Origin: Candidatus Dormibacteraceae bacterium
Lineage (GTDB): Bacteria > Chloroflexota > Dormibacteria > Dormibacterales > Dormibacteraceae
NCBI GenBank assembly: GCA_041482895.1
Contig: JBGPEO010000001.1
Coordinates: 1-57,941, forward strand
Direction: 5' to 3'
DNA length: 57,941 nucleotides
The first letter of the stretch is position 1; every line of letters starts with the position of its first letter. The translations under genes and the position numbers were made by a program. The notes under the pieces are model-generated. The model saw only the letters and a program-made list of their open reading frames with translations. It searched no databases and was not told where the DNA came from. Shown here in pieces: positions 1,702 through 57,865 of the stretch.

Positions 1702-2959
1702 TCGGTACCTCCCTCTCGATAGCCCTGCCCTCCGGTGGACCGACCTCCCGGAAAAGGCGATTTTCCCACACGCCGAGAACGAAGATGCCGATCGCCGCGA
1801 TCGTCCAGATGTTGGGGAAGATGAGGTCGCACGGCGCGCGATAGAACCCGAGCAGGAGGATGACCAGGACCGCGAGCGAACCGAATCTTCGCTGCTCGAT
1901 CCCGCGCACGACGAGCAGGAGGACAAGCGGCAGCAGCGGCAGCCATTGGTACGGCCAGACCTCGTTGGGAATCAGGGCCCCGAGAGCGAAGCCCATCGAC
2001 ATGCCGTAAGCCGCGTTCCATCCGCTGCGCCAGGCGGCCCACGTCGCCGCCGCCGCGAAGACGAGGGCGCTCGTATAAGAAAGCGCGAGCGCCACCGCCG
2101 GCAGATGCACCGGCGAGGTGACGAGAACGTAGCCGGTGCTCGTGGGCTGCGCGTACTGCTCCCCGCCGATCGTGCGCATGAACAACGTGCGGACCGAGTC
2201 GTAAGCGCAGTCGGGATTGTGCGACGCAAGCGAAGGGAGCAGCACGTGCTGGAAGTAGAAGACGGCGCCGCCAAGCCCGAGCGGCACAAAGCTCGCGACG
2301 GTGACGAAAACCAGCACGGCGGCAAGAGCCACCGCGTAACGGATCCGATGCTCGGGGCGTGTGCCGATCACCATCGCGGCCGGGTAGTACTTGAGCGCTG
2401 CGACCAGCCCGCCTGCGGCGCCCGCGAGCGCCGGGCGGTTCGCCTCGAGTGAGATCGAGGCGATCGCCCCCAGCAGCAGCACGCCGCCACGCTGGCCGGC
2501 GACCACGTCCGAGAACAGCGGCGGGAAGTACGCCGCCACCATCCAGAACGCGGGCCGTGCCAGCGGATGCCGGCTCGCGACCAATCGGTAGAGAAGCAGC
2601 AGCGCGAGCAGCATCGCGACGCCGTCGATACCGGTCCAGACCTGCACGGCGACAAACTTGGGCAGCAGCGCGACCGGGGCCGCAAGGGCCGCCAGCGGAG
2701 GCGGGCTCACGAACTCATCGAGCCCGCCGGGCGGCGCGATGATGTGAAAGCGCGCGATGTACTGCGCAGCCGCGTCGTACATGTGGGAAGGCTCGGTGAT
2801 GTAGGCGTGGGCGCCTTCCCACATGCCCTCGGCGTCGAAGCGACGCGGCGTCAGGATGGTGAGGATCGCCACCCGAAGCCAGAAAGCGGCGGCGATCGCC
2901 CAGTAAAGGGCCGGCCGCCCGAACACGTCGGTGGCGGCACGGCCCAGCCGGCCGATCAA
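1685..2959 (-). CDS. Polytopic membrane protein, DUF2029/GT87-like glycosyltransferase (tentative)
   Basis: 424-aa ORF with many hydrophobic helices. Its overall look (AALKYYPA, long loops) resembles polyprenol-phosphate-sugar-dependent GT87 enzymes. The start is TTG, and an alternative GTG exists at 2926. Confidence 0.55.
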   Translation of the reverse strand: MIGRLGRAATDVFGRPALYWAIAAAFWLRVAILTILTPRRFDAEGMWEGAHAYITEPSHMYDAAAQYIARFHIIAPPGGLDEFVSPPPLAALAAPVALLPKFVAVQVWTGIDGVAMLLALLLLYRLVASRHPLARPAFWMVAAYFPPLFSDVVAGQRGGVLLLGAIASISLEANRPALAGAAGGLVAALKYYPAAMVIGTRPEHRIRYAVALAAVLVFVTVASFVPLGLGGAVFYFQHVLLPSLASHNPDCAYDSVRTLFMRTIGGEQYAQPTSTGYVLVTSPVHLPAVALALSYTSALVFAAAATWAAWRSGWNAAYGMSMGFALGALIPNEVWPYQWLPLLPLVLLLVVRGIEQRRFGSLAVLVILLLGFYRAPCDLIFPNIWTIAAIGIFVLGVWENRLFREVGPPEGRAIEREVPNGAQQ

Positions 2960-2962
2960 ACG

Positions 2963-3026
2963 GCAGCCGCGCGGCGATGGCGCGCGGTCAATCTGCAGCC
3001 GCGCGGCGATGGCGCGCGGTCAATCT
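2963..3026. repeat. Perfect 32-bp tandem duplication (2 units)
   Basis: GCAGCCGCGCGGCGATGGCGCGCGGTCAATCT occurs at 2963..2994 and again at 2995..3026. Each unit carries a 7-bp inverted repeat (CCGCGCG/CGCGCGG). The second unit contains the LysR stop codon. Confidence 0.9.
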
Positions 3027-3949
3027 GTCGGAGGTCTGAGGTGGCCTCGCGCATCGTTGCGCGTGAGCCAGCTCGTGTCCTTCAAGAATTCGATGAAAGC
3101 TAGCACGGACGCCGGGAGGCGGCGCCTGCGCAAGTGCACGATGTGCCAGTCGCGGCGGATGGGGAAACCGCGCACGTTCAGCTCGACCAGGCGGTGGCCC
3201 GATAGTTCGAGCGCGCACGCGTAGCGCGAGATCACGGCCAGGCCGAGCCCCGATTCGACGGCATGCTTGATCGCTCCATTGGATCCGAGCTCCATGGCGA
3301 CATCCAGCTTCGCTCCCGCCTTGCGCGCCGCTTTCTCGAGCGACCACCGGCTGCCCGAGGCCGGCTCGCGCATCACGAAAGGTTGGTGCTCGAGGTCCTT
3401 CAGGCCGAGCGCCCGGCGTCCGGCCAGCTTGTGGCCGGCGGGCGCGATGACGATGAGCTCGTCGCTCACGAAAGGAAGAATCGCCAGGTCGGGATCCTTG
3501 AGCGCCGGCCCGACGACTGCGAGGTCGAGCTCGTTGGCGAGCACCTGCTCCTGGACTCGAGCCCGCGTGCCGATCTCGAGCGAGATGACAAGACCCGGAT
3601 GAAGCTTCTTGAAGGCGCCGAGCGCCGCGGGTAGCAGGTAGATCCCGACCGTTGTGCTCGCGCCGACGCGCAGGTTGCCGCGCTTGATGCCGCGCATCTC
3701 TTCGAGCGCAAGCGATGCCTCGTCGAGCACGTCCAGGGTTCGTCTCGCATACGAATAGAGGACGGTGCCGGCCTCGGTCAGGTGCACCTGGCGGCCGAGA
3801 CGATCCAGGAGCGGCAGGCCGATCGCCTCCTCGAGCTCCTTGACCTGGTATGAAACCGACGGCTGGCTGAGGCGCAGCTGCTGCGCGGCGAGGCTGAAGC
3901 TGTTGAGGTCGGCAACCGTCTTGAAGGTGCGTAGCTGGCGCAGAGTCAC
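3020..3949 (-). CDS. LysR-family transcriptional regulator
   Basis: ORF 3020..4087 contains TLRQLRTFKTVADLNSFSLAAQQLRLSQPSVSYQVKELEE (LysR wHTH) and a C-terminal substrate-binding domain. GTG at 3949 gives the canonical N-terminus. The longer ATG start at 4087 would overlap the divergent carboxylase gene. Confidence 0.85.
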   Translation of the reverse strand: MTLRQLRTFKTVADLNSFSLAAQQLRLSQPSVSYQVKELEEAIGLPLLDRLGRQVHLTEAGTVLYSYARRTLDVLDEASLALEEMRGIKRGNLRVGASTTVGIYLLPAALGAFKKLHPGLVISLEIGTRARVQEQVLANELDLAVVGPALKDPDLAILPFVSDELIVIAPAGHKLAGRRALGLKDLEHQPFVMREPASGSRWSLEKAARKAGAKLDVAMELGSNGAIKHAVESGLGLAVISRYACALELSGHRLVELNVRGFPIRRDWHIVHLRRRRLPASVLAFIEFLKDTSWLTRNDARGHLRPPTD

Positions 3950-7764: not shown

Positions 7765-8283
7765 TTGGAACACGATTCGAACGAGTTTCGGCCACCCGTA
7801 CGCATAGTCGCCTCGCGGCAGCGCCGCAGAACCGTAACCGCCCGCCTGCGCTCAGGCGTCCTCGAGCTGCTCGTGCCTTCGTCCATGCCTCATGCCGAGC
7901 GGGAGCAATGGGCGGAAAGGATGCGACAGCGCCTCGAGCGCCGGATGCGTCGATTCCGCCCCACCGACGAGCGGCTCGCCGAGCGTGCGCGAGCTCTCAA
8001 CCTCCGGCATTTCGGCGGCCGCCTGCGGTGGACGTCGATCGGTTATGCCGAGATGTCCCATACGTGGGGAAGCTGCACCTTCACCGTCGGGGCGATCCGT
8101 ATCGCCAGGCGCGCGGCGGCGCTGCCGGACTGGGTGCTGGACTACCTGCTGATGCACGAGCTGGCCCACCTCGAGCACAGCGACCACGGGCCGGCATTCC
8201 ACGAGCTCGAGAATCGCTACCCGTTGACGGAGCGGGCGAAGGGCTTCCTTATGGCCATCGACGTCGGGGCTGCTAGGGCCTAA
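7765..8283 (+). CDS. DUF45/YgjP-like M48-type metal-dependent hydrolase
   Basis: 172-aa ORF with WGSCT and HELAHLEH (HExxH) motifs. Confidence 0.75.
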   Translation: MEHDSNEFRPPVRIVASRQRRRTVTARLRSGVLELLVPSSMPHAEREQWAERMRQRLERRMRRFRPTDERLAERARALNLRHFGGRLRWTSIGYAEMSHTWGSCTFTVGAIRIARRAAALPDWVLDYLLMHELAHLEHSDHGPAFHELENRYPLTERAKGFLMAIDVGAARA

Positions 8284-8576
8284 GGACGACCTTAAGCACG
8301 GGGGAGGCAGGCCTCCCCCGTGGAGCCCCCTCCCGTAAGACGTTGCCTGGAGGCGCCTGGAAGGGGCATAAGGGACGGCCGGAGTAAATCCGGCCTAGGG
8401 CTCCCCTAGAGGTACGTGTTCTAGGGAGTAAGGACGATCTTAAGCACGGGGGAGGCAGGCCTCCCCCGTGGAGCCCCCTCCCGTAACACGTTGCCTGGAG
8501 GCGCCTGGAAGGGGCATAAGGGACGGCCGGAGTAAATCCGGCCTGGGGCTCCCCTAGAGGTACGTGTTCTAGGGAG
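8281..8576 (+). repeat. Tandem pair (148-bp period) of the GGCCGGAGTAAATCCGGCC repeat family
   Basis: Units at 8281..8428 and 8429..8576 differ at only a few positions. Each contains the hairpins CACGGGGGAGG-cagg-CCTCCCCCGTG, GGCCGGA-gtaaa-TCCGGCC and CTAGGG-ctc-CCCTAG. A third partial unit start (TAAGGACGATCTT, 8577) is the 3' end of the ADH gene. Confidence 0.9.
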
Positions 8577-9606
8577 TAAGGACGATCTTGGTCGCTTCGC
8601 GGGCGTCGAACATCTTGTAGGCGTCCGCGGCCTGGTCGAGCTTCATCCGGTGGCTGATGATCGTCTCCGGCTTAAGCCGCCCGGCGGCGATCAGGTCGAG
8701 GAGCGGGCGCATGTATTTCTGCACGTTGCACCGGCCGGAGCGAAAGGTCAGCGCCTTCTCCCACATGTGGTAGTAGTTGAAGTCGGCGGTGAACTCGCTC
8801 GGGACGCCGACCACCGAGATCGTGCCCCCTCCGCGCACGCACTGGATCGCTGTGTCAACCGTCGCGGTGAGGCCGACGGCCTCGATACTCGAATCGGCGC
8901 CGATGCCGCCGGTCTGAGCCGCGATCGATTCCACAGGGTGAGAGCGAGCTGCGTTGATCGGCGTTCCTCCCAGCTCCTGCGCGATTTCGAGCCGCGACTC
9001 GACCATGTCAACCACGAAGACGCGCGCAGGTCCGAACAGCTGCGCGCACATCGTCGCCATCAAGCCGACCGGACCCGCCCCGATCACCGCGACGTTGTCG
9101 CCCGGGTGGATCTCTGCTCGGTCCGCGGCGAACATCCCGGTGGAGAGGATGTCGCCGACGAAGATCGCCTGCTCGTCGGTCATGCCCTCCGGAATGAGCT
9201 CCATCGAGTGGTCCGCGAGAGGTACGACTACGTATTCGGCCTGTCCCCCACCGAGTCCACCGAGCACGGCGCCGAATCCGAAGGTGGCTATGTTGAGGCA
9301 CTGGTTGAACCAACCCTTGCGGCACAGCGCGCAGTGGCCGCAAGAGGTGTAGAAGCTCACTACCACGCGATCCCCCGGCTTGAATCGCTTGACCGCCGGC
9401 CCAACCTCCTGGATCACTCCGACGAACTCGTGCCCGAGCAGCTCGCCCGCGACCATCGGAATCCGCCCGTGGTAGGCGTGCAGGTCGGATCCGCAGATGG
9501 CTCCGAGGGTCACCTTCAGCAGGGCCTCGTCGGGAGCCTGGATTGACGGCTTAGGTACATCCATGACCTGGACCTGTCCGACCCCTTGAAAGGTCGCAGC
9601 CTTCAT
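8569..9606 (-). CDS. Zinc-dependent alcohol dehydrogenase (MDR family)
   Basis: Inner part of ORF 8569..10062 from MKAATFQGVGQVQVMDVPKP. It has GHEFVG, the structural-Zn cluster CGHCALCRKG and the GAGPVG Rossmann motif. Confidence 0.9.
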   Translation of the reverse strand: MKAATFQGVGQVQVMDVPKPSIQAPDEALLKVTLGAICGSDLHAYHGRIPMVAGELLGHEFVGVIQEVGPAVKRFKPGDRVVVSFYTSCGHCALCRKGWFNQCLNIATFGFGAVLGGLGGGQAEYVVVPLADHSMELIPEGMTDEQAIFVGDILSTGMFAADRAEIHPGDNVAVIGAGPVGLMATMCAQLFGPARVFVVDMVESRLEIAQELGGTPINAARSHPVESIAAQTGGIGADSSIEAVGLTATVDTAIQCVRGGGTISVVGVPSEFTADFNYYHMWEKALTFRSGRCNVQKYMRPLLDLIAAGRLKPETIISHRMKLDQAADAYKMFDAREATKIVLTP

Positions 9607-17083: not shown

Positions 17084-17203
17084 CTCTTAACAAGCTGGGT
17101 TGCGGCGACGAGCTTCTGTCTGTTTTGCTGGCCTCAGGCGTGCCGGTTGGGGGCAATCAGTAGGTCCGATCCTTATCGCCGCTTTGCGCGCTGGGCCCTC
17201 GGT

Positions 17204-28914: not shown

Positions 28915-29080
28915 GATCTACGCGGGGGAGGACAGCCGTCGCGCGCAAGCGCGATAGGGTTCGGCCTCCTGATCGCTCCCCCACGGTACCCCCTCCTCTC
29001 CTCAGCGACGCAAGGAGTCGCTTGGAAGTGACGCCCTTGGGTGACGGCCGGAGTAGATCCGGCCTAAAGCTCCCCTCAGC
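28915..29080 (+). repeat. Copy of the GGCCGGAGTA(A/G)ATCCGGCC dispersed repeat family (long variant)
   Basis: Contains CGCGGGGGAGGACAGCCGTCGCGCGCAAGCGCGAT...CCCCCACGGTACCCCCTCC...GACGGCCGGAGTAGATCCGGCCTAAAGCTCCCCTCAGC. It is collinear with the reverse complement of 57661..57865. Confidence 0.8.
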
Positions 29081-29121: not shown

Positions 29122-29934
29122 CTGGAGCCCCTCTCTTTCGACGACCTCCCGCTAGGTGGTGAATGGACCACCCGGCGACGCACCATTTCTGAATCAGAGA
29201 TAGCTCTGTTTGCCGGTGTCTCCGGCGATTTCTCGCCCCTTTCGATCGAAGCCGCCCCTGGCCACGCCCGCCCGGTGCCACCCACGCTCCTCGTCGCCAT
29301 CGCGGTGGGCCTGGGCACGATCGACATGCCGGTGCCGTCGGTCGAGGAGTGGGAATGGCTCAACTGGACGTTTCCCCGCGCGGTGCATGCCGGCGACACG
29401 GTCTACGCGCGCTGGTCGCTGACCCAGAAACGGCCCCCACTCGGCGAGGCGCCGACCTCGATCGTCGTCTGGCGGGTCGACGTCCACACGGCCGACGGCG
29501 TCCTGTGCGCCGAGGGCGAGGTGGGAGCCAAGGTCAGGCGCCGCCTGCTCCCTAAGGAGCGTGAGCGCGCCCAGGAACCAGCCGCGGCCGGTCCCGCGGG
29601 AGCCGCCGGGGCGGCCGCCCCTCGCAGCAGGCGCCGGAGACGCCGCCCGGCCGGCGCGACTGGGCCGCTGCCCGACGCGGCGCCGGTCGTCGCCACCCCA
29701 ACCGCCGCGGTCGCCAAGCCTGAAAGGGCCGCTGGAGCGCCCAGAAGGCGGCGGCGGCGGCGGCCATCCGGCGGCGCGTCAACCCACGACGGGGAACCTG
29801 GCGGGAATCCGTCGCCCTCGGCTGAGTCTGCATCTCCGCCCCCTGCCGCTGCGGCCCCACCGAGCGCCAGCGCGACCGAACGCGGCGGGCTCAGCGGGGT
29901 GATCCGGCGGCTCCGCCAACCGAGACGAACCTAG
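29122..29934 (+). CDS. MaoC-like (R)-hydratase hotdog protein with Arg/Pro/Ala-rich C-terminal tail
   Basis: My translation from CTG at 29122: LEPLSFDDLPLGGEWTTRRRTISESEIALFAGVSGDFSPL...WTFPRAVHAGDTVYARWSL...VVWRVDVHTADGVLCAEGEVGAKV. The track ORF starts only at GTG 29275, which would cut off the conserved N-terminal half. Confidence 0.6.
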   Translation: MEPLSFDDLPLGGEWTTRRRTISESEIALFAGVSGDFSPLSIEAAPGHARPVPPTLLVAIAVGLGTIDMPVPSVEEWEWLNWTFPRAVHAGDTVYARWSLTQKRPPLGEAPTSIVVWRVDVHTADGVLCAEGEVGAKVRRRLLPKERERAQEPAAAGPAGAAGAAAPRSRRRRRRPAGATGPLPDAAPVVATPTAAVAKPERAAGAPRRRRRRRPSGGASTHDGEPGGNPSPSAESASPPPAAAAPPSASATERGGLSGVIRRLRQPRRT

Positions 29935-37495: not shown

Positions 37496-38612
37496 GTGCG
37501 GCCTCGCGCGCTTCTTCGTAAACCTCGATCACCTGCGATGCCACAGCGTCCCACGCGTAGCGTCGGGCCTTCTCGTGGCCATACGCTCCCATGCGACGCC
37601 GCAGCTCGGCGTCCCTGGCCAGGATGATCAGCGCCGAACCCAACTCCGCCCATCCCTTCGGGCGCACGGTCAGGCTGTCGTGCCCGGGCTCTAGCACCGA
37701 CATGTAGCCGGGAACCTCGGTGGCGACCACGGGCAGCCCAGAGGCCATCGCCTCCAGGAGCACGATGCCGAAGCTCTCGGCGCCCGTGGCCGGAGCGCAG
37801 AAGATGTCCGCGCTGTTGTAGTAACGCGGCTTCACCGAGTCGGGGACATAGCCCGCCATCACGACATTCGGAAGCCGGTGGCGGGAGATGTAAGACTCGA
37901 CCCGGCCCCGCAGGGGTCCGTCGCCGACGATGATCAGGCGGGACTGCGGCACGCGCTCTCGCATGAACTCATAGCCCCGCAGCAGGTCGCCCAGCCCCTT
38001 TCGCTTCTCCAGCCGGCCGACGAAGAGGATGTTCAGGTTGTCATCGCGCAGGTGACGGATCGGTGCAAGACCTGGCTTGAAGACGTTGACGTCGATTCCG
38101 TTCGGGATGACCCGGAGAGGGAAGTTGGGGAAGTAGCGGTTGAAGAACATTCGAGCGGGCTCGCTCACGGCGATCCCTCGATGGATGTGCTCGAGGTATG
38201 GCTGCAGGATTCCGCGGCCGTAGTAGTACCCGATGTTGGAGTGGGAGAAGGCGTGGAAGGTTCCCACGTTTGCTGTGACCGACATCCGCAGCATTGTGAG
38301 CGGCAGTGCGGGCAGCAACGGCTCGTGGAAGTGAAGCACGTCGAAACGCTCCTCCTCGATGATCGCGGCCACGCGGTTGCCCAGGTGAAAGCTCAGAGTG
38401 ATGCGGGCCACCGAGTCGTTGACCGGGACAGCGATAGGGGTCCCGATCCGGTAGAACTCGGGCGTGTCGAAGTCGATGTCGGAGCGGCTGGAGGGGGCGA
38501 AGATGCGCACCTCCTGGCCCTGCTGCCGGAGCTGCCCGGCAAGGTATCGGACGTGGTCGTTCACGCCGCCGGGCGAAGCGAAATCGTAAGGCGAAACGAG
38601 CCCGACCTTCAC
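37446..38612 (-). CDS. pimA: GT4 glycosyltransferase, phosphatidylinositol mannosyltransferase PimA-like
   Basis: Inner part of ORF 37446..39038 from GTG at 38612: VKVGLVSPYDFASPGGVNDHV...FHEP...GRLEKRKG...ESFGIVLLEAMASG. It is collinear with mycobacterial PimA. Confidence 0.75.
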   Translation of the reverse strand: MKVGLVSPYDFASPGGVNDHVRYLAGQLRQQGQEVRIFAPSSRSDIDFDTPEFYRIGTPIAVPVNDSVARITLSFHLGNRVAAIIEEERFDVLHFHEPLLPALPLTMLRMSVTANVGTFHAFSHSNIGYYYGRGILQPYLEHIHRGIAVSEPARMFFNRYFPNFPLRVIPNGIDVNVFKPGLAPIRHLRDDNLNILFVGRLEKRKGLGDLLRGYEFMRERVPQSRLIIVGDGPLRGRVESYISRHRLPNVVMAGYVPDSVKPRYYNSADIFCAPATGAESFGIVLLEAMASGLPVVATEVPGYMSVLEPGHDSLTVRPKGWAELGSALIILARDAELRRRMGAYGHEKARRYAWDAVASQVIEVYEEAREAAHDGARQPGERHVHNAV

Positions 38613-38624
38613 CGTGATTCCCCG

Positions 38625-38738
38625 CGTCGCGACAAGGCCGGATTTACTCCGGCCGTCTCCCACGCGTCCCTTATCAAGGCGCCTCCCCCTCGTGGCCAGG
38701 AGAGGGGGGTCCGTGGGGGGATCCTGATCCCCCCGCGC
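38625..38738 (-). repeat. Copy of the GGCCGGAGTAAATCCGGCC repeat family inside the PIM operon
   Basis: The plus strand reads ...AAGGCCGGATTTACTCCGGCCGTC...CCCTTATCAAGGCGCCTCC...GGGGGGTCCGTGGGGGGATCCTGATCCCCCCGCG. It fills the 130-nt gap between the acyltransferase stop (38743) and the pimA start (38612). Confidence 0.8.
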
Positions 38739-38742
38739 TTTT

Positions 38743-39615
38743 TCATGGCGAGTTGGCCCAGATGGCGTGTGGAACATGCCACTGCTCGGGATGGCGCCGG
38801 ATGAAATTCTCGATCTGGTGCAGCACCTGCTCGGTGGCGCGCACCTGGTCCGCCCGCGGGTTCCCCGTGTCCTCGGCGAAAACCAGCGGAGCGGCCTCCG
38901 CCTGGTACGTATCGTCCGGCAGCCGGTAGACACAGACAGGGAGGATCGGCGTGCCCGTCCGCAACGCAATCGCGGCGGGGCCCAGCGGAATCGGCGCGAG
39001 CCGCCCGAAGAACGGCATCGGGAAGCCCGTACCGACAATATCGCGGTCGATCGCCGTGACCACCATCTCCTCGTCGCGCAGCGCCTGCAGAACTTTGCGA
39101 ATTCCCCCCGTGTCGAGCGTCAGGACGCTGATCCCGAGCCTGGCTCGTGTGTCGCGATACCACTCGAACATCTCCCGTGGTTCCAGCTCCTCGGCAAAGA
39201 AGCTGACCGGGGTGATCGTCGCCGACCAGATCGCGGAAACGACCTCGTACGAACCCATGTGGCACGACACGACGAGCACTCCCTTGCCGAGAGCGCGAGC
39301 CTGCTCGAGATGCTCCATTCCCTGCACCTTCAGCCAGGGTCGCATGGTCTCGACGGAAGTCCTCGGCAGCATCATCAGGTCCGCGTATGCCTTGGCGTGA
39401 TTTCGAAAGTTGAGCCACGAAACGCGTCGCAGCTCGCGCGTGTCGTGTTCCAGCTCTGGGCACGCGATCTTCAGGTTGTATTCGAGGCGCGGTCTGGCCA
39501 GCGGGGAGAACAACCATGCAAATCGCGCCGCCAGCACCGCGAGCGCGTACGCCAGCGGGCGCGGGAACCGCTCCACCACCGATTGCACGGCCTTGAACGC
39601 GCGGTATCGCCACAA
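38743..39615 (-). CDS. LpxL/HtrB-family lipid acyltransferase (PatA-like), paralog B
   Basis: 290 aa, collinear with lauroyl/PIM acyltransferases (NFRNHAKAYADL..., VSCHMGSYE HX4-type motif). The TTG start is 1 nt after the upstream stop. Confidence 0.8.
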   Translation of the reverse strand: MWRYRAFKAVQSVVERFPRPLAYALAVLAARFAWLFSPLARPRLEYNLKIACPELEHDTRELRRVSWLNFRNHAKAYADLMMLPRTSVETMRPWLKVQGMEHLEQARALGKGVLVVSCHMGSYEVVSAIWSATITPVSFFAEELEPREMFEWYRDTRARLGISVLTLDTGGIRKVLQALRDEEMVVTAIDRDIVGTGFPMPFFGRLAPIPLGPAAIALRTGTPILPVCVYRLPDDTYQAEAAPLVFAEDTGNPRADQVRATEQVLHQIENFIRRHPEQWHVPHAIWANSP

Positions 39616-56720: not shown

Positions 56721-57621
56721 CGAGCAGCTCTTCCTTGGGGATGGCGGGGATCTCGAGACCGTCCATCGCCTTCCCCAGTCCCGCGGACACCTCGGCCAGG
56801 CGTTCCGGCTTGTCGTAGTAGGTGGTGGCCGCGACGATTGCCTTGGCACGCTTCAAGGGGTCCTCGGACTTGAAGATGCCTGAACCGACGAAGACTCCGT
56901 CCACTCCCAGCTGCATCATCAACGCCGCGTCCGCGGGCGTCGCGATGCCACCGGCAGCGAAGTTGACGACAGGCAGGCGGCCGAGGCGCTGGCACTCGGC
57001 AAGCACGTCCACCGGAGCGCCGATGAGCTTGGCCTCGTGAACCAGCTCCGCGTGGTTGAGTCCATGCAGCTTGCGGATGCCGGCGTTGACCGCGCGCGCG
57101 TGGCGAACCGCCTCGACGACGTTCCCCGTTCCAGCCTCACCCTTGGTGCGGATCATTGCCGCGCCTTCGGCGATCCGCCGGGTCGCCTCGCCAAGGTCCC
57201 TGCAGCCGCACACGAAGGGCACCTTGAACGGGTGCTTGTCGATGTGGTTCTCCTCGTCCGCGGGCGTCAGCACTTCCGACTCGTCGATGTAGTCGACGCC
57301 CAGCGCCTGCAGGATCTGTGCCTCGACAAAGTGCCCGATGCGGCACTTCGCCATGACCGGGATGGTCACCGCCTCCATGATCGAGCGGATCAGGTCGGGG
57401 TCGGACATGCGTGCCACGCCGCCTTCTTTCCGGATGTCGGCCGGAACTCGCTCGAGGGCCATCACGGCGCACGCGCCGGCCTCCTGGGCGAGGCGGGCGT
57501 GCTCGGGCGTGACGACGTCCATGATCACTCCGCCCTTCAGCATCTGGGCCAGGCCGGCCTTGACCTTGAAGGAACCTTTCACGGCGCCGTTTCCATTACG
57601 CGAACCATTGCGTTCGGCCAC
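56704..57621 (-). CDS. pdxS: Pyridoxal 5'-phosphate synthase lyase subunit
   Basis: [47 protein letters not shown] and [18 protein letters not shown] are near-universal PdxS motifs. Confidence 0.95.
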
Positions 57622-57660: not shown

Positions 57661-57865
57661 GTTGCTGAGTGGAGCCTTAGGCCGGATTTACTCCGGCCGT
57701 CACCGATGCCCGCACGTTCCAGACGCCTCCAAGCGTCGCCGAGGCGTTCAGTAAGTCCCATCCTGATCGCGCTTGCGCGCAGAGGAGGGGGTCCCGCGGG
57801 GGAGCAATCAGTACGTCCCACCCTCATCGCCGCTTGGGCGCGACAGCTGTCCTCACCCGCGCTCT
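57661..57865 (-). repeat. Copy of the GGCCGGAGTAAATCCGGCC repeat family (longest variant, with internal sub-duplication)
   Basis: The plus strand reads GCTGAGTGGAGCCTTAGGCCGGATTTACTCCGGCCGTCACC...GAGGAGGGGGTCCCGCGGGGGAGCAATCAG...GCGCGACAGCTGTCCTCACCCGCG. The sub-unit CGCGC(C/G)CAAGCG(G/C)CGAT..GGGAC(G/T)TACTGA occurs twice. It lies upstream of pdxS. Confidence 0.8.

Follow-up and report, generated by a model that had tools for sequence, protein, structure and literature searches.

Repetitive extragenic palindromic (REP) sequences and bacterial interspersed mosaic elements (BIMEs) are mobilised by RAYTs (REP-associated tyrosine transposases) of the Y1 HUH type, and REP-like repeats are normally lineage-specific. 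For the enterobacterial repetitive intergenic consensus (ERIC) elements, also called intergenic repeat units (IRUs), we know of no transposase; their effects are exerted on mRNA level and depend on orientation. The phylum Dormibacterota (formerly AD3) is abundant in soil and permafrost and is known almost wholly from metagenome-assembled genomes (MAGs), and to our knowledge little has been described of its non-coding genome. Here we analyse a stretch of 57,941 nucleotides from a Candidatus Dormibacteraceae bacterium (positions 1 to 57,941 of contig JBGPEO010000001.1, assembly GCA_041482895.1), referred to below as the window, which carries five copies of a hairpin-rich repeat, all of them intergenic. 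We propose, with a probability of roughly 0.6, that these copies belong to a new non-coding, non-autonomous interspersed repeat family of the REP/BIME-ERIC-BOX kind that is characteristic of Candidatus Dormibacterota. Multi-copy extragenic spread, covarying hairpins, nesting, tandem amplification, strain polymorphism and retention at syntenic sites are all directly observed for this element.

The copies were delimited with a covariance model built solely from copies of other genomes and run over the full window with filters off. The model returned exactly five copies at four loci (Table 1), the remaining matches being noise, and it agrees to within a few bases with the five coordinates and orientations listed in an initial annotation of this DNA, which had also placed every copy between genes. 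Each copy contains a 19-nt core, GGCCGGAGTAAATCCGGCC, present three times on the plus strand and twice on the minus strand (with one mismatch at 29046); the chance expectation for the window, whose GC content is 66%, is 0.02 matches. Is the likeness perhaps limited to local duplication, the outcome that the initial annotation had named as fatal to the idea of a family? Clearly not. An exact-pattern scan of one genome per prokaryotic species with the 20-mer CGGCCGGAGTARATCCGGCC found it in at least 114 contigs, most of them from MAGs that bear the labels Candidatus Dormibacterota, Dormibacterales or Dormibacteraceae; further contigs come from ‘Chloroflexi bacterium CF_nn’ MAGs, which are taken to be older labels of the Dormibacterota lineage. 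MAGs labelled Limnocylindria, Acidobacteriota or other groups contain a few further copies of the family, reflecting either mis-binning or true spread. Within 0.73 Mb of fetched loci the covariance model identified 100 copies at E <= 1e-5. Abundance is also apparent from the soil, peat and sediment metagenomes that contain the window genome, where assembly depth rises ~10- to 100-fold over the core (1,041-1,166 over the core versus 9-120 in the flanks in run X6, a peat metagenome). Viral contigs yielded one chance match, which is not a family member. The element could not be assigned to a described family: Rfam release 15 gave no match at the gathering threshold for the window and 18 loci of the subtype B described below, the best hits at permissive thresholds being noise (rpsL_pseudo, 21 bits against a cut-off of 70; sR60, 16 bits against a cut-off of 50), and the searchable literature contained no paper with the core sequence, nor any on REP repeats of Dormibacterota. 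The initial annotation had likewise not recognised it as a named family.

The element measures ~115-125 nt in its short form and up to 250 nt in its long forms. From 5' to 3' it comprises an A-rich edge (A = 60-66% at positions -4 and -3), an 11-13-bp G:C hairpin called P1 (e.g. GCGGGUGAGGAC-loop-GUCCUCCCCCGC), a 2-4-nt linker followed by a C-rich strand, CCCCCUCC, a middle part of ~55 nt with repeated (A)CGC-YUGG motifs that include a Shine-Dalgarno-like GGAGG, the core, in which UGAC precedes the hairpin GGCCGGA-GUAAA-UCCGGCC and a U follows it, and a tail of ~12 nt (GCUCCAC... or GC(C/G)ACGC...). The shared modules proposed at the outset, namely the G/C-rich long hairpin, CCCCCTCC, GGAGGCGCC and the 7-bp stem with its gtaaa loop, were all recovered; the proposed 3' tail, GCTCC(C/A)CT, is found in all copies but the one at 38625 (four of five), which has GTCGCGACGC in its place. 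P1 is strongly supported as a real helix by its pattern of substitution, 12 of its 13 pairs having changed on both sides while 92% of cells remain paired. For P1 and the core stem together, 94.9% of cells are paired versus 38-55% when the partner is slid, a level reached in none of 500 shuffles, in an alignment that was itself fitted to the covariance model. The same P1 compensations (CGCGG/CCGCG, CGAUG/CAUCG, CGUUG/CAACG) can be recognised by eye among syntenic copies. The core stem is invariant save for three compensated AU->GC changes in its top pairs, and its loop reads GUAAA in 83 of 97 copies, the others having GUAGA, GUGAA, AUGAA, AUAAA, AUAAU or GUAA. A candidate hairpin P2 in the middle part, ACGCY-UGGA-GGYGU, is paired in 76% of cells versus 29-58% in slid controls. 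Two further candidate helices, P3 (GGCGY/RCGCC) and P4 (GCCAC/GUGGC), were paired in 57% and 48% of cells, barely above slid controls, and were dropped; a pairing of the 3' tail with the flank of P1 is seen in the 8.3 kb copies only and is not family-wide. RNAalifold, run on MAFFT and model-based alignments, recovered the core hairpin alone because of length variation among the copies. Counts of G.U versus A.C in P1 were not used as a test of strand, as they are biased by the hairpin finder.

The element grows by modules, as the initial annotation had anticipated; nested insertions and a second 5' domain bear this out. The inserted module, M, is ~40-45 nt long and consists of a GCGC-tetraloop-GCGC hairpin followed by AUNAGGAUGGGACUUACUGAUUGC. 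It occurs twice in the 57661 copy and once, in diverged form, in the 28915 copy, in keeping with the extra module first noted there. Its insertion sites are two, one within P1's 3' strand and one just past the C-rich strand, and the 57.7 kb copy has both insertions; copies elsewhere are without each of its inserts, with joints at 57704->57781 and 57804->57847/57849. Eight of 20 M matches in the fetched loci and the window have no core hairpin nearby, so that M is itself a small dispersed element which also nests in a larger one. A stand-alone M copy in the window (Table 1), intergenic and absent from the first list of copies, reads GCGCGC-AAA-GCGGCG followed by AUAAGGAUCGGACCUACUGAUUGC. The second 5' domain defines a subtype, type B, which has the middle part, core and tail in common with the other copies and carries instead an AUGAG(R)GGAA...UUCCYCUCAU hairpin, a GC hairpin and a CUCAUC...GAUGAG hairpin, the last of which covaries; type B occurs both with and without M. 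A reading of M as a K-turn or C/D box was discarded as unsupported, since it rests on 11-16-bit Rfam noise matches.

The distribution of the element relative to genes is that of an extragenic repeat. With gene orientation assigned at all loci by a crude GC3-based gene caller, 39 copies lie between convergent genes (>E<), an enrichment, and 9 between divergent genes (<E>), a depletion; between co-directional genes, 35 are sense (>E>) and 31 antisense (<E<). Copies therefore favour gene 3' ends, avoid promoter regions and have no orientation bias, and their distance to a stop codon is often 10-40 nt. Units frequently occur in direct tandem arrays of two to four, with up to four in loci L046 and L056, and all multi-copy clusters are direct tandems (window 8273-8589, L039, L046, L056, L069, L089). 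Positions are also retained between species. The element follows a YebC-family gene at the same site in eight MAGs, on the strand opposite to that of both flanking genes, and five MAGs make up a second syntenic set; in addition, a tandem element array in L046 adjoins a GAF-GGDEF gene that shares BLAST cluster and domain layout with that of the window. In the YebC set, mean element identity is 74% versus 64% at third codon positions of the adjacent gene, which implies that the element is under selection or is being homogenised.

Could the element then be a structured RNA that acts on its own strand, as a cis-regulatory or processing element or as many small RNA (sRNA) genes? The single-stranded CCCCCUCC, which is anti-Shine-Dalgarno-like, and GGAGG would be its functional parts. 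P1 covaries, the GC<->GU changes of P2 would be mismatches on the other strand, and CCUCC/GGAGG pairing holds in 82% of U-class cells. Moreover, U/A in the C-rich strand tracks C/U in GG(C/U)G (alignment A4, columns 95/171, corresponding to window positions 8331/8359 in copy 1; naive p = 0.002), the association of A95 with U171 linking the C-rich strand to GGUG with an odds ratio of 5.4; this suggests that CCUCC/GGAGG and CCACC/GGUG may be alternative pairings that compete with the P2 hairpin. Family fragments from other loci are found in soil metatranscriptome contigs, and the conservation of syntenic copies beyond synonymous sites would equally suit an RNA. Against this stands the even split between sense and antisense copies beside co-directional neighbours: the lack of an orientation bias argues against a purely sense-strand RNA element, and at the YebC site, the best-conserved syntenic one, the element is antisense to both neighbours. 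The three window loci that were scanned yielded nothing promoter-like, and the 3' hairpin has no U-tail after it. Five copies per 58 kb, tandem arrays, and presence/absence and copy-number polymorphism are typical of repeats, and the metatranscriptome contigs may represent DNA carry-over or read-through. We regard a structured RNA as an unlikely explanation of the whole pattern, roughly a one-in-five matter; the repeat reading and the RNA reading are not mutually exclusive and can both hold.

The preference for gene 3' ends raises another candidate, intrinsic terminators that resemble one another merely as GC hairpins. The A-rich edge 5' of P1 places U's after P1 on the opposite strand, and in copy 4 the plus strand at 38712-38742, where P1 is followed by TTTTT, is a textbook intrinsic-terminator-like site. 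Such an edge, with at least 5 A in 8 nt, is found in just 19 of 93 copies (~20%). Neither of the other two loci covered by the scan, at 8.3 kb and 57.7 kb, gave a terminator-like site, and at 38.7 kb the terminator-like strand is antisense to its own operon. A multi-module sequence of 120 nt with an invariant second hairpin across dozens of species is not what terminators lead one to expect. As a general explanation the terminator was rejected, a usable U-run occurring in ~20% of copies and on the strand opposite the element, and we consider it very improbable for the family. The individual site at 38712-38742, which is directed against the acyltransferase/GT4 operon, could block antisense transcription.

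Differences between strains of ~95% identity are visible in the X6 assembly. One contig has one unit where the window has two at the 8.3 kb array, with the joint 8299->8449. At 38.6 kb, between flanks ~95% identical to those of the window, 15 nt (TCCTTCCGACCTTAC) replace the 135 nt of 38612-38746 and leave the two operon genes 10 nt apart; the filled site reads CCATGA/AAAAG...AATCAC/GTGAAG and the empty site CCGTAA-GGTCGGAAGG-ATGAAG. At 28.9 kb the element is kept in close relatives, and a more distant relative has 147 nt versus 246 in the window. Presence/absence polymorphism, a size of 115-250 nt, an extragenic multi-copy distribution and nested insertions would fit a miniature inverted-repeat transposable element (MITE), that is, an internally deleted insertion-sequence derivative moved by the transposase of that element. 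However, terminal inverted repeats are absent: the 5' end is AAAGCGCGGG and the 3' end GCUCCACUCAG or GCGACGC, and the aligned ends (AAAG+GCGCGGG at 5' versus GCUCCAC/GCGACGC at 3') are not complementary. The polymorphic site is without a target-site duplication, so gain and loss look alike at 38612-38746, and no transposase was found in 0.9 Mb of element-bearing loci or beside the window copies. Cross-species syntenic retention is, furthermore, unlike typical MITE turnover. A MITE thus appears improbable.

How close is the element to REP sequences in the strict sense? It is extragenic, multi-copy and enriched at gene 3' ends (39 convergent versus 9 divergent sites), as REPs are, whereas the unit is 115-250 nt long instead of a 20-40-nt palindrome and clusters as direct tandems instead of alternating inverted pairs. 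The GTAG that marks REPs is not conserved: the triplet after the core hairpin is UAA in 21 copies, UAC in 18, UAG in 16, UGA in 12 and another in 30 (n = 97), and GTAG on the other strand is possible from UAC alone, in 18 of the 97. The features of ERIC/BOX-type mosaic repeats are all present (100-250 nt, extragenic, structured, modular, devoid of coding capacity or transposase), an assignment to a functional class that does not rest on sequence likeness. Of the two options in the initial annotation, a REP/MITE-like element or a small structured RNA family, the first survives as a REP/ERIC/BOX-like repeat, with the MITE label withdrawn for want of terminal inverted repeats and a clean target-site duplication, and the strict REP label for want of a conserved GTAG and of inverted pairs, no RAYT having been detected in the ~0.9 Mb of loci searched.

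One feature of the anatomy may go beyond ordinary hairpins. The 3' strand of P1 and the C-rich strand are mirror images (CCUCCCCC-GCGGAA-CCCCCUCC), which makes the C-rich strand the parallel complement of the P1 purine strand, GGGGGAGG. The purine strand, its Watson-Crick partner and the mirror C/U strand might fold as a pyrimidine-motif triplex in single-stranded DNA or RNA, or as H-DNA, and form, together with the GUAAA hairpin, the unit recognised by an enzyme or binding protein. The layout of purine, pyrimidine and mirror-pyrimidine strands is that of H-DNA mirror repeats and of RNA ENE triple helices (MALAT1, PAN). The C-run before the U matches the G-run before the A (5/5 in the main group, 6/6 in the 38.6 kb copy and its relatives, 4/4 in another group), the YebC-linked lineage has lost the one run along with the other, and the C-rich strand is missing wherever P1 is not homopurine in a lineage. 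Parallel complementarity amounts to 71% versus 64.7 +/- 0.8% when third strands are permuted among copies, with controls of 40% for the antiparallel arrangement and 44-53% for shifted registers. A hairpin and mirror C-run recur before the 19-nt hairpin of Vicinamibacteria (G6CG...CGC6-AAA-C5G). On the other side, there are few independent events, 22 of the 77 copies with A in the purine strand and a base at the matching third-strand position have A and not U there at the single A-U pair, many adjacent C+.G-C triples need protonation and low pH, and the C-rich strand also pairs conventionally with GGAGG. We therefore hold the triplex to be doubtful, at odds of about one in eight. If true, it would represent a novel type of nucleic-acid structure, mobile or regulatory, that is common to soil phyla.

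The Vicinamibacteria (Acidobacteriota) copies just mentioned deserve a closer description. Contigs L016 (~3990), L033 (53-71 and the next unit), L062 (~3210) and L097 carry the identical 19-nt hairpin in a shorter unit, composed of G6CG...CGC6, AAA or ACA, CCCCCG, UCGCUU and then the hairpin; in L033 the unit is repeated in tandem, and in L062 a tRNA gene precedes it. These units are either a related sub-family in another phylum or a product of convergence. Separately, in UBA10199-like MAGs (L030 2285-2303, L065, L111) the hairpin stands directly after a sigma-70-like TTGACA-N17-TATTCC and is followed by a conserved UCCAUUGACCGCCCAAAAAUCCUUCGGAUUUUCGGGGCCCGCCAAUCCGC. In this arrangement the site resembles the beginning of a small RNA gene; Rfam gave no match for it, and Rfam searches of the other-phylum loci produced just tRNAs and noise.

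Several observations weigh against the repeat family that we propose. A RAYT or other cognate enzyme, which the initial annotation thought might be encoded elsewhere in the genome, did not come to light in the element-bearing DNA: the best E in a tblastn search of the 114 loci and the window (~0.9 Mb) with RAYT and IS608 TnpA queries was ~1, which is a weak test. When the recurrent neighbour genes were clustered, all proved to be housekeeping genes (GGDEF, ABC ATPase, acyl-CoA dehydrogenase, YebC and others), with no linked enzyme among them. There is no clean target-site duplication at the polymorphic 38.6 kb site, a single site, and the orientation calls come from a crude GC3 method. Variation in P2 is confined to GC<->GU changes, as would suit a structure that is read from one strand only. 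Phylum-wide conservation of the core and its presence in Vicinamibacteria are unusual for REP-like repeats. Lastly, core conservation is in part an ascertainment effect, because the loci were found through an exact core match; extra copies in the same loci that were detected by the profile alone have kept the core too.

What would the interspersed repeat family imply for the way in which the element spreads and persists? The invariant hairpin and its fixed flanks, UGAC before and U after, would be the recognition site of a trans-acting protein encoded elsewhere. Possible candidates are a host factor that binds DNA or RNA, and a recombinase or transposase that works on single-stranded DNA folded into a hairpin. 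Once a copy is fixed in a transcription unit, its hairpins could act as barriers that affect transcript ends, stability and the coupling of neighbouring genes, by analogy with REP, ERIC and BOX. An effect of this kind on transcripts would explain retention at syntenic sites.

The window copies and their parts are collected in Table 1. Each 148-bp unit of the 8.3 kb array equals one element plus ~21 nt of flank, and the array (8281-8576) is flanked by two convergent genes, one encoding a YgjP-like peptidase and the other a zinc alcohol dehydrogenase. The unit covers the last six codons and stop of the dehydrogenase gene (CTAGGGAGTAAGGACGATCTT), at 8569-8589, 8421-8441 and 8273-8293; since the tandem unit holds the C-terminus of the dehydrogenase, duplication took flanking coding sequence along. 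The leftmost flank copy (8273-8293) is diverged and overlaps the end of the YgjP-like gene. The copy at 28915 adjoins a GAF-GGDEF cyclase gene, the copy at 38625 is within the acyltransferase/GT4 glycosyltransferase operon, and the copy at 57661 is ~40 nt upstream of pdxS and 24 nt past the stop codon of the preceding gene. The contexts first assigned to the copies (convergent gene ends, operon, upstream of pdxS) thus stand, except that the divergent promoter region at 28915 is doubtful: the supposed partner, 29275-29934 (+), is a weak open reading frame with no Pfam match. The examined flanking genes of the window copies are all ordinary and include no transposase, in line with the initial annotation. 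At the pdxS locus, a soil metatranscriptome contig (run X21) spanning pdxS stops precisely at 57621, where the GTG start is predicted, and runs on into Illumina adapter; this position, ~40 nt downstream of the element, may be a 5' end that is leaderless or has been processed. GC skew was considered as a cause of the plus-strand copies in the first half of the window and the minus-strand copies in the second, and was set aside because there is no skew switch. Tandem Repeats Finder also detected a separate 32-bp tandem repeat at 2956-3027 (2.2 copies, 95% identity), unrelated to the family.

Table 1. Copies of the repeat family and its M module in the window
Feature	Position	Strand	Detection	Parts and remarks
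Tandem array	8273..8589	+	Tandem Repeats Finder: 148-bp unit x 2.1, 97% identity	
Copy 1, short type	8295..8409	+	Covariance model, 86.1 bits, E 2e-17	P1 hairpin 8297-8322; C-rich mirror strand 8326-8333; core hairpin 8377-8395; fold z-score -4.0
Copy 2, short type	8443..8557	+	Covariance model, 85.4 bits	Core hairpin 8525-8543
Copy 3, long type	28919..29078 (28938-29078 in another run)	+	Covariance model, 77.9 and 91.7 bits	Diverged M module nested within P1; core hairpin 29046-29064, loop GUAGA
Copy 4, short type, six-G subfamily	38621..38739	-	Covariance model, 73.4 bits	P1 38712-38737; core hairpin 38636-38654; polymorphic segment 38612-38746
Copy 5, long type, two nested M modules	57666..57863	-	Covariance model, 59.1 + 19.9 bits (match divided in two because of inserts)	M cores 57747-57764 and 57807-57824; core hairpin 57680-57698
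Stand-alone M module	17150..17197	-	Exact match to M consensus	No core hairpin near

What is the value of such a family? The repeat offers a phylum-specific marker and typing handle, as in REP-PCR and ERIC-PCR, and a clean case for studying how REP/ERIC/BOX-like elements spread without an obvious transposase. Its density and conservation also make Dormibacterota assemblies break, with depth spikes and contig ends at the core. The invariant 19-nt hairpin can serve as bait for finding its binding protein, and retained syntenic copies together with the in-operon polymorphism allow effects on the expression of neighbouring genes to be tested directly. In addition, the conserved purine/pyrimidine/mirror-pyrimidine layout makes a natural triplex testable by simple biophysics.

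The proposed family amalgamates features of several known systems. Like REP/BIME and REPIN sequences it is extragenic, reaches high copy number, has a conserved GC-rich hairpin, lies near 3' ends and between convergent genes, and forms mosaics. A REP, however, is a single palindrome of 20-40 nt, whereas here several hairpins are strung over 115-250 nt; REPs alternate as inverted pairs, whereas these units are direct tandems; and the core is kept phylum-wide here but within one species group there. The motif UCCGGCCUAC, present in some copies, seems to resemble the foot of the E. coli REP, GTAGGCCGGA. With the ERIC/IRU elements of Enterobacteriaceae and Vibrio it shares a length of ~125 nt, an extragenic position, a structured sequence, occurrence in many genera and in either orientation, and longer forms that arise when fixed internal sites receive insertions. 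Whereas an ERIC consists of a single long imperfect palindrome, the element described here is a row of hairpins with a mirror repeat; there is no apparent sequence relationship between the two, and tandem arrays are a common feature of the Dormibacterota element that sets it apart. The BOX elements of Streptococcus pneumoniae (boxA-boxB(n)-boxC) provide the parallel for its modular hairpin boxes, variable module number and intergenic location, and no mobilising factor is known for them either; they are built from other modules in another phylum, while the Dormibacterota family is distinguished by a core hairpin that is near-invariant and by a module, M, that also leads a solitary existence.

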